A stretch of DNA of 64,000 nt from positions 22,757-86,756 of the forward strand of contig MHPK01000001.1 of assembly GCA_001822075.1 (NCBI GenBank). The letters are read 5' to 3'. A program made the translations under genes and the position numbers. Shown in pieces: positions 52,991 through 55,018 of the stretch (position 1 is its first letter; the number at the start of each line of letters is the position of its first letter). This DNA comes from Candidatus Staskawiczbacteria bacterium RIFOXYB1_FULL_38_37 (GTDB lineage Bacteria; Patescibacteriota; Minisyncoccia; Minisyncoccales; Staskawiczbacteraceae). The notes beneath the pieces were generated by a model. It searched no databases, was not told the origin of the DNA, and saw only the letters and a list, made by a program, of their open reading frames with translations.

Positions 52991-55018
52991 TTATTTAATC
53001 AAATTTAAAAATTCTTTTTCGCTTATTATTTTTACTCCCAATTTTTTTGCTTTTTCAGCTTTGCTTCCCGGTTCAGAGCCTGCCACCACAAAATCTGTTT
53101 TTGACGAAACGGAACCTGCAATATCTCCGCCCAGCTCTCTTATTTTTTCTTTTGCCTGGTCGCGTGTCATAGATTTTAAAGACCCCGTAAGTACAAATGT
53201 TTGCCCGGCTAATTTTAAGTTTTGTGATTTATAATTTGTATTTTGTATTTTCACAAATTTTTGGAGTTTTTCCAAAAATTTTAAATTATCTTTGTCAGAA
53301 AACCATTCATAAATGGACTTTGCAACAACAGGGCCAATATCTAAAATAGAATCTATTTCTTCAAGTTTTGCCTCTTTAATTTGTTTAACCGACCCAAAGC
53401 GCTTTGCCAGCTCAATTGCTGTTTCTTGCCCCACATTTCTAATGCCCAAAGCATAAATAAATCTTGCAAGGCTTATTTCTTTTTTGCTTTGTATTGAATT
53501 TACCAAATTTTCAGCTGACTTTTCGGCAAATCGTTCCAATGGAACTATGTCGCCCTCTTTTAATTCAAACAAATCTGAAGGGTCTTGAACCAAGCCCTCG
53601 TCTAAAAGTTTGTTTATAATTTTAGGGCCCAAACCATCTATATCAAAAGCAGGCCTTGAAACAAAATGATAAAAATTTCTTCTTTGCCTTGCAAAACATT
53701 TTGGATTCGGGCATTTCAACAATGCTTCTCCTTCTAATTTAATCAGCTTTGTGTTGCAAGCCGGGCATTTTTCTGGCATTTTAAAACTTTTTTCATTACC
53801 CTCTCTTAATTCTGGCAAAACTTTTATTATATTTGGAATTACATCTCCCGCGCGGCCCACAACAATCGTGTCTCCAATTTTTACCCCTAATCTTTTTATT
53901 TCGTCTTCATTGTGCAGAGTGGCTCTTGTTATTGTGATTCCTGTAACCTGCGCGGGCTTTAAAACAGCCACTGGAGTTATGGCCCCTGTTCTGCCAACCT
54001 GCACTTTAATGTCTAAAACTTTTGTTACAGCTTCAGCTTGCGGAAACTTAAAGGCAATAGCTGCCCTTGGAGCTTTGCCTACAACCCCTAATTTTTCAAA
54101 TGTTCTATTATTGTTTGCAACAACCACAATTCCGTCTATCTCGTAATCAAGTTTTTCTCTTTGCTTTATCCAATGCTCGCGAAATTTTACAACTTCTTCT
54201 AAAGACTTGCAGTATTTGTTGTGTTTATTCGTTTTAAAACCAAAATCTTTTAAAATTTTGTGCTTTTCTTCATGGGTTTTTTGCCCTAAATTAGAAATCA
54301 ATTCATAAGCAAAAGAGTCCAGTTTTCTTGAAGCTGTAATTTTTGGGTCTAACTGCCTTACAGAGCCGGCTGCTATATTTCTTGGGTTTGCGTAAGCTGG
54401 CAGGCCTTTTTCTTTTTGAAGCTTGTTTATTCTTTTAAACTCTTTTTTTGTAATAAAAACCTCGCCCCGAACAACCAAAGTCGGTGGGGTGTCGGACACC
54501 CCACCGGCATGGTGGGGTGTCGGACACCCCACCACTAACGGAATTGCTTCAACTGTTTTTAAATTTTGGGTAATGTCTTCTCCTATTGTTCCGTCGCCGC
54601 GGGTGGAGCCTGTTTTTAAAAATCCGTTTTCATAAATAAGTTCTATTGCCAGGCCGTCTATTTTTAATTCGCAATAAAAATCTAATTCCTGTTTTTCTTT
54701 TTCAGTAAGAAGTTTTGAAATTCTTTCAAGCCAGTCTTGCATGTCTTGTTTTGAAAAAGCGTCATTAAAAGATAGCATTCTTTCAGAATGCTTCACTTTT
54801 TTAAATTCTTTTAAGGGTTTTCCTGCCACTCTTTGAGTAGGCGAATCTGAAGTTATTAAATCTGGAAACTGCTGTTCCATATCAAAAAGCTCTTTTTTCA
54901 AAGAGTCTAAGGCATGGTCTGAAATCTCCTGCCTGTCTTCTACATGATAAAGATAGCGGTGGCGATTTATAACCTCTCGTAATTTCTGTATTCTTTTTTT
55001 TGCTTCGTTCTTTTCCAT
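52991..55018 (-). CDS. ligA: NAD-dependent DNA ligase LigA
   Basis: Adenylation motif [16 protein letters not shown], a Zn finger (CPACNTKL...CPNPKC), HhH repeats and a C-terminal BRCT ([10 protein letters not shown]...). Confidence 0.97.
54483..54533. repeat. Two tandem perfect 23-nt palindromes ggtggggtgtcggacaccccacc (period 28), in frame in ligA
   Basis: Copies at 54483-54505 and 54511-54533. Minus-strand translation is [16 protein letters not shown], just before the conserved VVRGEVF motif. Confidence 0.9.

Follow-up and report, generated by a model that had tools for sequence, protein, structure and literature searches.

How do two copies of a GC-rich palindrome come to lie, in frame, within an essential gene of a small AT-rich genome? 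The question is raised by ligA, which codes for the NAD-dependent DNA ligase, in a 64,000-nucleotide (64-kb) stretch of contig MHPK01000001.1 from Candidatus Staskawiczbacteria bacterium RIFOXYB1_FULL_38_37, a tiny groundwater bacterium of the candidate phyla radiation (CPR); this whole stretch is referred to here as the window. We consider it quite probable that the pair is an intragenic doublet of repetitive extragenic palindromic (REP) elements, similar to a REPIN (REP doublet forming hairpin), which is associated with a REP-associated tyrosine transposase (RAYT), was placed or is maintained in the gene by such an enzyme, and is tolerated without benefit to the ligase.

The palindrome pair and the ligase that carries it

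A preliminary description of this DNA had reported two perfect 23-nt palindromes in ligA. The exact 23-mer (GGTGGGGTGTCGGACACCCCACC) does occur twice, at 54483-54505 and 54511-54533, with the 28-nt period given there, and these are the only two copies in the window. The pairing described also holds, but the perfection does not, since the odd length leaves a single central G unpaired in each 11-bp stem. One further base pair per copy gives palindromes of 25 nt (Table 1), and the form present in this ligA, GGTGGGGTGTC, is termed the 'GT' variant. When the window was shuffled with its dinucleotides preserved, no match to the 23-mer was obtained, even with three mismatches permitted. As RNA, a 101-nt ligA region is predicted to fold with -56.3 kcal/mol (z = -5.6), with alternatives in which either each copy is paired with itself or the first copy with the second, and no Rfam match was found at ligA.

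In none of its six frames does the palindrome contain a stop codon, and the peptides that these frames can yield include those of the VGC(P/R) and WGV(G/R)HPT types. As first reported, the ligA reading frame (675 aa) runs through both copies without a stop. The gene is intact, with a full set of Pfam domains and all of the invariant residues of the ligase motifs, and a protein identical to its product is known from a metagenome-assembled genome of Candidatus Staskawiczbacteria. In all, the identical protein is found on 28 contigs from NCBI, JGI, ENA and Logan.

Judged by alignment with LigA orthologues, the pair is an insertion relative to the LigA family, as the nearest orthologues and the solved LigA structures are without 12 residues at this site. 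The closest insert-free orthologues have 663 aa and 84% identity, and a 12-residue gap falls exactly at the insert when the solved LigA adenylation domains of the PDB are aligned domain-wide. The enlargement is smaller than the 17-19 residues initially proposed: about 18 codons are palindrome-derived, and the net gain is 12 residues (36 nt). Among the best 120 orthologues, the stretch from IPL to RGEVF is mostly of 10 residues and of the KIDDKRxIIV type (KIDDKRHIIV in the nearest relatives), and the insert-free loop is encoded by AT-rich DNA without structure (AAAATAGACGATAAGAGGCATATAATTGTA; folding energy of about -1 kcal/mol). At this place the close orthologues have the short AT-rich loop instead of a homologous non-palindromic segment, which rules out an ancestral loop common to them.

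The structure of the enlarged loop was approached with an AlphaFold2 model made with 79 orthologues. Residues 163-179 are modelled without secondary structure, and residues 166-175 have a predicted local distance difference test (pLDDT) score below 50, while the surrounding adenylation domain scores 85-93 and the strand of motif III (180-189) follows the loop directly. In the model, the insert is thus a loop that is disordered, immediately precedes motif III and would be compatible with the fold, and the gap in the PDB alignment lies at the same place, in line with the expectation of a surface loop that would be permissive. We infer that the insert is translated into the LigA protein.

GC-rich hairpins may also be chimeric or erroneous products of sequencing or assembly, and a second assembly (L004), 99.9% identical to the window, gives some reason to consider this explanation. 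The two differ at five positions in 8,028 nt, every one of them inside the 55-nt doublet (L004:3484-3538; p of about 1e-8), so the exact bases of the hairpins are possibly error-prone. Two of the five replace T by G, at an arm position that is the same in the two copies, and the differences between the strains include T493G and T521G. The differences may reflect either hypermutation or conversion of the hairpins or else hairpin-associated sequencing error, and they make the hairpins hotspots of disagreement between assemblies. The V174G change is seen again in proteins P0002 and P0003. The presence of the insert, by contrast, is not explained in this way: the same protein is found on the 28 contigs of the four sources, near-identical strains have an insert of the same length, and homologous doublets occupy the same ligA site in five other species, which together rule out an assembly artefact as its cause. 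As the repeat is also found in at least 115 contigs (see below), an artefact is considered extremely improbable.

Dispersal of the repeat and its link to a transposase

When metagenomes were scanned for a 19-nt core of the palindrome (TGGGGTGTCSGACACCCCA), matches were found in at least 115 contigs, with up to six copies in 11 kb. This dispersal, together with the result of the shuffles, rules out a unique or chance palindrome. A viral origin is unsupported, with no match to the core in viral contigs. In AT-rich CPR-like loci, 64 copies of the core are embedded in longer perfect palindromes with locus-specific outer stems (arms of 9-20 bp), and a run of T or A adjoins a third of them. No conserved tag or target motif was detected, since no flanking position exceeds 0.4 bits among 58 distinct copies and GTAG is absent from the core.

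About a quarter of the copies in AT-rich loci are intragenic. As coding density is high in such genomes, intergenic copies are strongly over-represented, which is the pattern that purifying selection against most intragenic insertions would produce. The gene ligA is not the only one to carry the repeat in frame. On other contigs it is found in Pfam-confirmed genes for TsaD (in two species, at the same site), MnmA, MiaA and RNase HII. Contigs with a GC content of 0.41-0.50 and few long open reading frames (among loci L092-L206; e.g., L130:1340-1543 and L124) hold 71 of the 135 copies of the 19-mer, in a shared and conserved context that includes a 30-nt tandem array (TTTTTGGGGTGTCGGACACCCCAACTTGAA); a RAYT homologue was not detected in these contigs.

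The window itself codes for a RAYT-like transposase, with the HUH motif MPNHIHLL and the tyrosine motif YIHVNP, which matches Pfam Y1_Tnp with E = 5.7e-11 and 43 bits (cutoff 23). Its gene is bordered on both sides by a palindrome, in a variant of its own (CGGAGTC-CSG-GACTCCG) in which GTC and GAC enclose a 3-nt centre. In a tblastn search of the retrieved loci with this protein, homologues with 50-62% identity were found in seven loci that had been retrieved solely via the 19-mer. There, the ligA-type palindrome recurs in the same three places as the palindrome of the RAYT-like gene of the window, namely upstream (16-26 nt from the start codon), downstream (3-19 nt from the stop codon) and within the reading frame (codons 60-74), although some of the seven do not have all three positions. 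The palindrome is present on one or both sides of the gene in L174, L180, L183, L120, L109 and L207, and the exact 23-mer forms the downstream copy of L183. The internal copy reads VGCPTPH, as does part of the insert in LigA. The RAYT-like genes of this CPR clade carry a palindrome of their own in frame, as seen in the window, in L174, L180, L183, L186, L194, L109 and L207 and among proteins P0121-P0240.

The family of these RAYT-like proteins comprises 1,172 database members, of which the named ones belong to Staskawiczbacteria or Patescibacteria. A peptide compatible with GTC-N-GAC stands just before the HUH strand in 107 of the best 120 of the 1,172 members, against one in a control segment. 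At the level of sequence, a GTC-N-GAC centre is the hallmark of the repeat family, and the loci described show a physical link between the dispersed repeat and a RAYT clade. The intergenic palindrome at 59712 has GTC-G-GAC at its centre, as does the ligA palindrome, so the common centre noted earlier is real; its GACGTC core is also the core of the ligA insert of L003. A terminator role for this palindrome is unconvincing, as its T-run lies on the strand opposite to the flanking genes.

The ligA insert and the transposase may be compared within one genome in the case of L003. On the contig of this ligA, the downstream flank of the RAYT gene is GGTGGGACGTC-C-GACGTCCCACC, and the upstream and internal copies (L207) are one mismatch away from it and identical to each other over 31 nt, flanks included. 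The ligA insert of L003 is of the same 'AC' variant as the RAYT-associated palindrome of its genome, and the 'GT' and 'AC' variants differ by paired changes in both arms.

These data also bear on the possibility that such hairpins originate locally and without a transposase, by template switching or fold-back synthesis in place and subsequent gene conversion between copies. For instance, the outer stems, with their arms of 9-20 bp, are locus-specific and yet complementary; the arm TTGGAR overlaps native Lys-Leu-Glu codons in L005 and in the first copy of L007; and the arm ATTCCCG of L009 is also native sequence beside the hairpin. Moreover, the 31-nt identity of the upstream and internal RAYT copies of L207 extends into their flanks and thus suggests recent copy-to-copy conversion. 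However, an identical core of 19-23 nt in at least 115 unrelated contigs, tightly associated with RAYT genes, rules out a repeated local origin, and the ligA variant follows the RAYT-associated variant of the genome. We regard a local origin of the ligA pair as quite unlikely.

Table 1. Palindromes and genes of the window (positions in the 64-kb stretch).
Feature	Position	Strand	Sequence or product	Remark
ligA	52991..55018	minus	NAD-dependent DNA ligase, 675 aa	hosts the doublet
REP copy, second in the reading direction of the gene	54482..54506		CGGTGGGGTGTC-G-GACACCCCACCG	minus-strand peptide GGVSDTPP
Spacer	54507..54509		GCA (3 nt)	separates the two 25-nt palindromes
REP copy, first in the reading direction of the gene	54510..54534		TGGTGGGGTGTC-G-GACACCCCACCA	minus-strand peptide VGCPTPH
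RAYT-like gene	13472..14206	minus	Y1 HUH transposase, IS200-like, 244 aa	
RAYT palindrome, upstream copy	14232..14250		GCGGAGTCC-S-GGACTCCGC	26 nt before the start codon of the RAYT gene
RAYT palindrome, internal copy	13975..13991			in frame at codon 72, peptide SGVPDS
RAYT palindrome, downstream copy	13437..13453			19 nt past the RAYT stop codon
Intergenic palindrome	59712..59734		AGATAGACGTC-G-GACGTCTATCT	member of the GTC-N-GAC family

One loop of LigA across relatives

Pairs of GTC-N-GAC palindromes are found at the same place of ligA in L003, L005, L006, L007 and L026, with stems that vary (GGACGTC, TTGGAAGGTC, TTGGAGGGTC and TTGGGACGTC). In the window and in L003, L005, L006 and L007, the first palindrome is centred on nt 496 of ligA, and all five species have the 3′ flank ACTTTGG in common. 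The first three pairs of the stem are invariant; pairs 4-6 vary between species and are nonetheless Watson-Crick paired in 13 of 13 copies, a pattern that shows palindromy, in the copies compared, to be maintained through covariation. The central bases of the two palindromes are identical (direct orientation) in the doublets of the window and L007 and complementary (inverted orientation) in those of L003, L005, L006 and L026.

Other hairpins are found in the same loop. CCCGC-NNNN-GCGGG hairpins fill it in L008 and L009 (in the latter with the peptide IPAKAGIQ), an inverted repeat of about 65-90 nt that resembles a miniature inverted-repeat transposable element is present in L010, L023 and L028, nested hairpins are found in L011, and more hairpin types are observed in distant CPR lineages (L051 and L066). 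In genes of the Staskawiczbacteria type, 10-residue loops have a GC content of 0.10-0.33 and a folding energy of -2.2 kcal/mol or weaker, compared with 0.46-0.68 and -10 to -47 kcal/mol in most enlarged loops; the remaining few of the latter are AT-rich and without structure. In a set of 55 AT-rich ligA genes, 10 of the 23 perfect GC-rich hairpins fall at residues 150-180, and four form a second cluster near residue 595, where residues 595-599 have a pLDDT below 50 in the AlphaFold2 model. GC-rich hairpins from several families are thus shown to occupy this loop recurrently.

In a rough neighbour-joining tree built with the loop masked, insert-bearing LigA proteins are scattered among insert-free ones. 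This tree and the conserved sequence of the insert-free loop would favour repeated gain, while the position at nt 496, the flank ACTTTGG and the evidence of conversion at the RAYT locus would favour an old site overwritten by the current variant of each genome. That an insert-bearing segment of ligA has spread horizontally through recombination is unsupported, with flank identities of 0.77 and 0.78 for insert-bearing genes versus 0.79 and 0.84 for insert-free ones. A GC-biased patch running downstream from the insert (Arg CGG for AGA) is ruled out, as insert-free genes use CGN too.

An ancient insertion might have been co-opted, whether for the binding of RAYT or another protein, for pausing of replication or transcription, for tuning of the ligA mRNA or through a loop that modifies the ligase. 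Such a role would agree with the centring of the first palindrome on nt 496 in five species with a shared 3′ flank, with the perfect pairing kept via compensatory changes and with the very stable fold (-56 kcal/mol, z = -5.6). Additionally, RAYT genes retain an in-frame copy at a fixed site, so the long persistence of fixed-site hairpins is possible. By contrast, the nearest relatives (84% identity) and most orthologues have no insert but a short AT-rich loop, the insert is modelled as disordered, and Rfam gave no match. Furthermore, unrelated hairpin families fill the same loop in other lineages, which argues for tolerance rather than a specific function. Co-option therefore seems to us quite improbable, and a doublet that is selfish and tolerated is the most likely interpretation.

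A tolerated, RAYT-associated doublet would come about as follows. The repeat would be a short GC-rich hairpin of the class mobilised by REP-associated tyrosine (Y1/HUH) transposases, in a family defined by its GTC-N-GAC centre and by variable, always-complementary stems. By acting on single-stranded hairpin DNA, a RAYT may have placed the doublet in ligA or may maintain it there. Survival would be restricted to in-frame copies in a permissive loop, which is easily achieved because the palindrome is stop-free in all six frames. Once translated, the doublet would enlarge the loop before motif III by 12 disordered residues and would bring no benefit to the ligase, as selfish or neutral DNA that the protein tolerates. 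That a REP-like hairpin has been tolerated as extra peptide in this enzyme was already suggested in the preliminary description, with a comparison to Rickettsia palindromic elements, and the idea gains support from the insertion status of the pair, the loop modelled with AlphaFold2, the dispersed core, the association with RAYT and the GTC-S-GAC centre.

Several observations weigh against this account. The repeat has no GTAG or CGTC tag and no target motif, contrary to the characterised REP classes, and there are only two copies of the 23-mer within 64 kb of the source genome. The best and only NCBIfam match of the RAYT-like protein of the window, REP_Tyr_transpos (NF047646), scores 44.6 bits and is below the cutoff of 80, and phmmer found no match for this protein to a solved RAYT structure in the PDB; consequently, the protein is assigned to a divergent RAYT-like clade. 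The cognate palindrome of its gene differs from the ligA type, and no RAYT gene with the ligA-type variant is present within the 64-kb window. Additionally, the shared position at nt 496 and the flank ACTTTGG are not explained by simple independent insertion, the case for translation of the insert is based on conservation of frame and stop codon only, and no transposition step has been observed. With regard to the shared position, we tentatively entertain the possibility, although we find it doubtful, that hairpins at fixed sites (the RAYT-internal one and that at ligA nt 496) are overwritten in place by the current master variant of the genome, and that the transposase gene of this CPR-specific RAYT clade permanently carries its own substrate hairpin in frame.

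Other hairpins were noticed in ligA and its surroundings. GC-rich hairpins of the CCCCGTC-GGAT-GACGGGG type form a second, smaller hotspot at about residues 592-599 of LigA in L009, L025 and L039, within the linker that precedes the BRCT domain. In the window, the minus-strand NIF3-like gene at 39605-40585 carries near its C-terminus an in-frame GC-rich palindrome (CCTGCCTGCC|GGCAGGCAGG, at 39662-39681; peptide CLPAGRG), whose family apparently gives 'PAQAG' in two LigA loops (P0057 and P0096) and 'CLPAGRQ' in one RNase HII (L120), and is intergenic at L007:4546-4563. Three successive GC-rich hairpins (GAGCACAGACG..., GTGCTCGGCCGAGCAC and GAGCACTCG...) occupy the intergenic positions 50535-50589; they are conserved in L004 and have no Rfam match. 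Similar stems (AGTACCACCG...CGGTGGTACT) are present in the terminator-like hairpins that lie behind ligA and behind the Trp-repressor-like gene next to it (52917-52942 and 52348-52375), and the stem is conserved, with a different loop, at L001:5022-5047. Finally, the split of rpoC into two called genes in L006 (18025-18040) is due to a TAG that stands in frame at a conserved Gln (LHRLGI*AFRP) and not to a hairpin insertion; the TAG could be a sequencing error, a pseudogene or a case of stop-codon read-through.

Known repeat systems and the meaning of the ligA doublet

Intragenic REPs are known to lie wholly inside open reading frames and in frame, and more than half of them form dimers, with 20-30 residues encoded by each (Di Nocera, De Gregorio and Rocco 2013, PMC3733652). 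They are enriched in genes of DNA replication and repair, including the DNA ligase of Opitutus terrae, and some are associated with REP-flanked RAYT genes, called REPtrons (PMC3733652). The ligA doublet is alike in being formed by short palindromes, in frame inside a repair gene, dimeric and RAYT-associated. However, those REPs have a GTAG or CGTC tag at one end, whereas the ligA family is untagged and forms a perfect palindrome around GTC-N-GAC. Other differences are that the host is a CPR bacterium, that the RAYT gene itself bears the repeat in frame, and that one loop of one gene is occupied repeatedly across species. Intragenic REP dimers in repair genes, a ligase included, have thus been known since 2013; what is new here is the repeat family and its recurrence at one spot.

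In REPINs, two REPs with a short spacer form a longer hairpin, the cognate Y1 transposase gene is REP-flanked, and each genome has its own master variant; classical REPINs are extragenic and number tens to hundreds per genome (Bertels and Rainey 2011, PMC3116915; Bertels et al. 2017, PMC5581495). Paired REPs with a short spacer, a repeat-flanked Y1 transposase and a genome-specific variant are also found in the system described here. By contrast, there are only two copies in the 64 kb, both intragenic, and the doublet of the window is direct instead of inverted. In the literature searched, no report was found that links RAYT or REPIN with CPR or Patescibacteria.

According to PMC10969869 and PMC3733652, the Rickettsia palindromic elements (RPEs; Ogata et al. 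2000), the classic example of in-frame insertion, interrupt many unrelated housekeeping genes without loss of frame in a genome that is small and AT-rich, their insertions are thought to be surface-exposed and compatible with folding, and RPE-1, of about 100-150 bp, is without a known transposase. The repeat described here resembles them in that it is palindromic, is inserted in frame in unrelated housekeeping genes and belongs to small AT-rich genomes, although the elements are of 25 nt (53 nt as a doublet) and RAYT-associated. The transposase of the window also belongs to the same Pfam fold family (Y1_Tnp) as TnpA of IS200/IS605. Transposases of the latter group recognise subterminal hairpins, and their elements have distinct left and right ends; in our case, however, the gene is bordered by identical short palindromes, and there is no sign of a multi-copy gene in the examined loci.

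The findings would mean that hairpin repeats of the REP/RAYT type operate also in the minimal, AT-rich genomes of CPR bacteria, where intergenic space is so small that the repeats are found inside the essential genes ligA, tsaD, mnmA, miaA and rnhB. Peptides such as VGCPTPH and GGVSDTPP would mark repeat-derived segments, and these may confuse the annotation, alignments and phylogenies of CPR marker proteins. If overwriting in place is true, it would be a RAYT-driven mode of REP maintenance, by copy-to-copy conversion and not by classical insertion and loss, and it would explain the presence of different variants at one codon-level position of an essential gene across species. With its untagged perfect palindrome, a transposase gene that bears the hairpin and orthologous sites with different variants, the family may offer a compact natural setting in which to study the copying of REPs.

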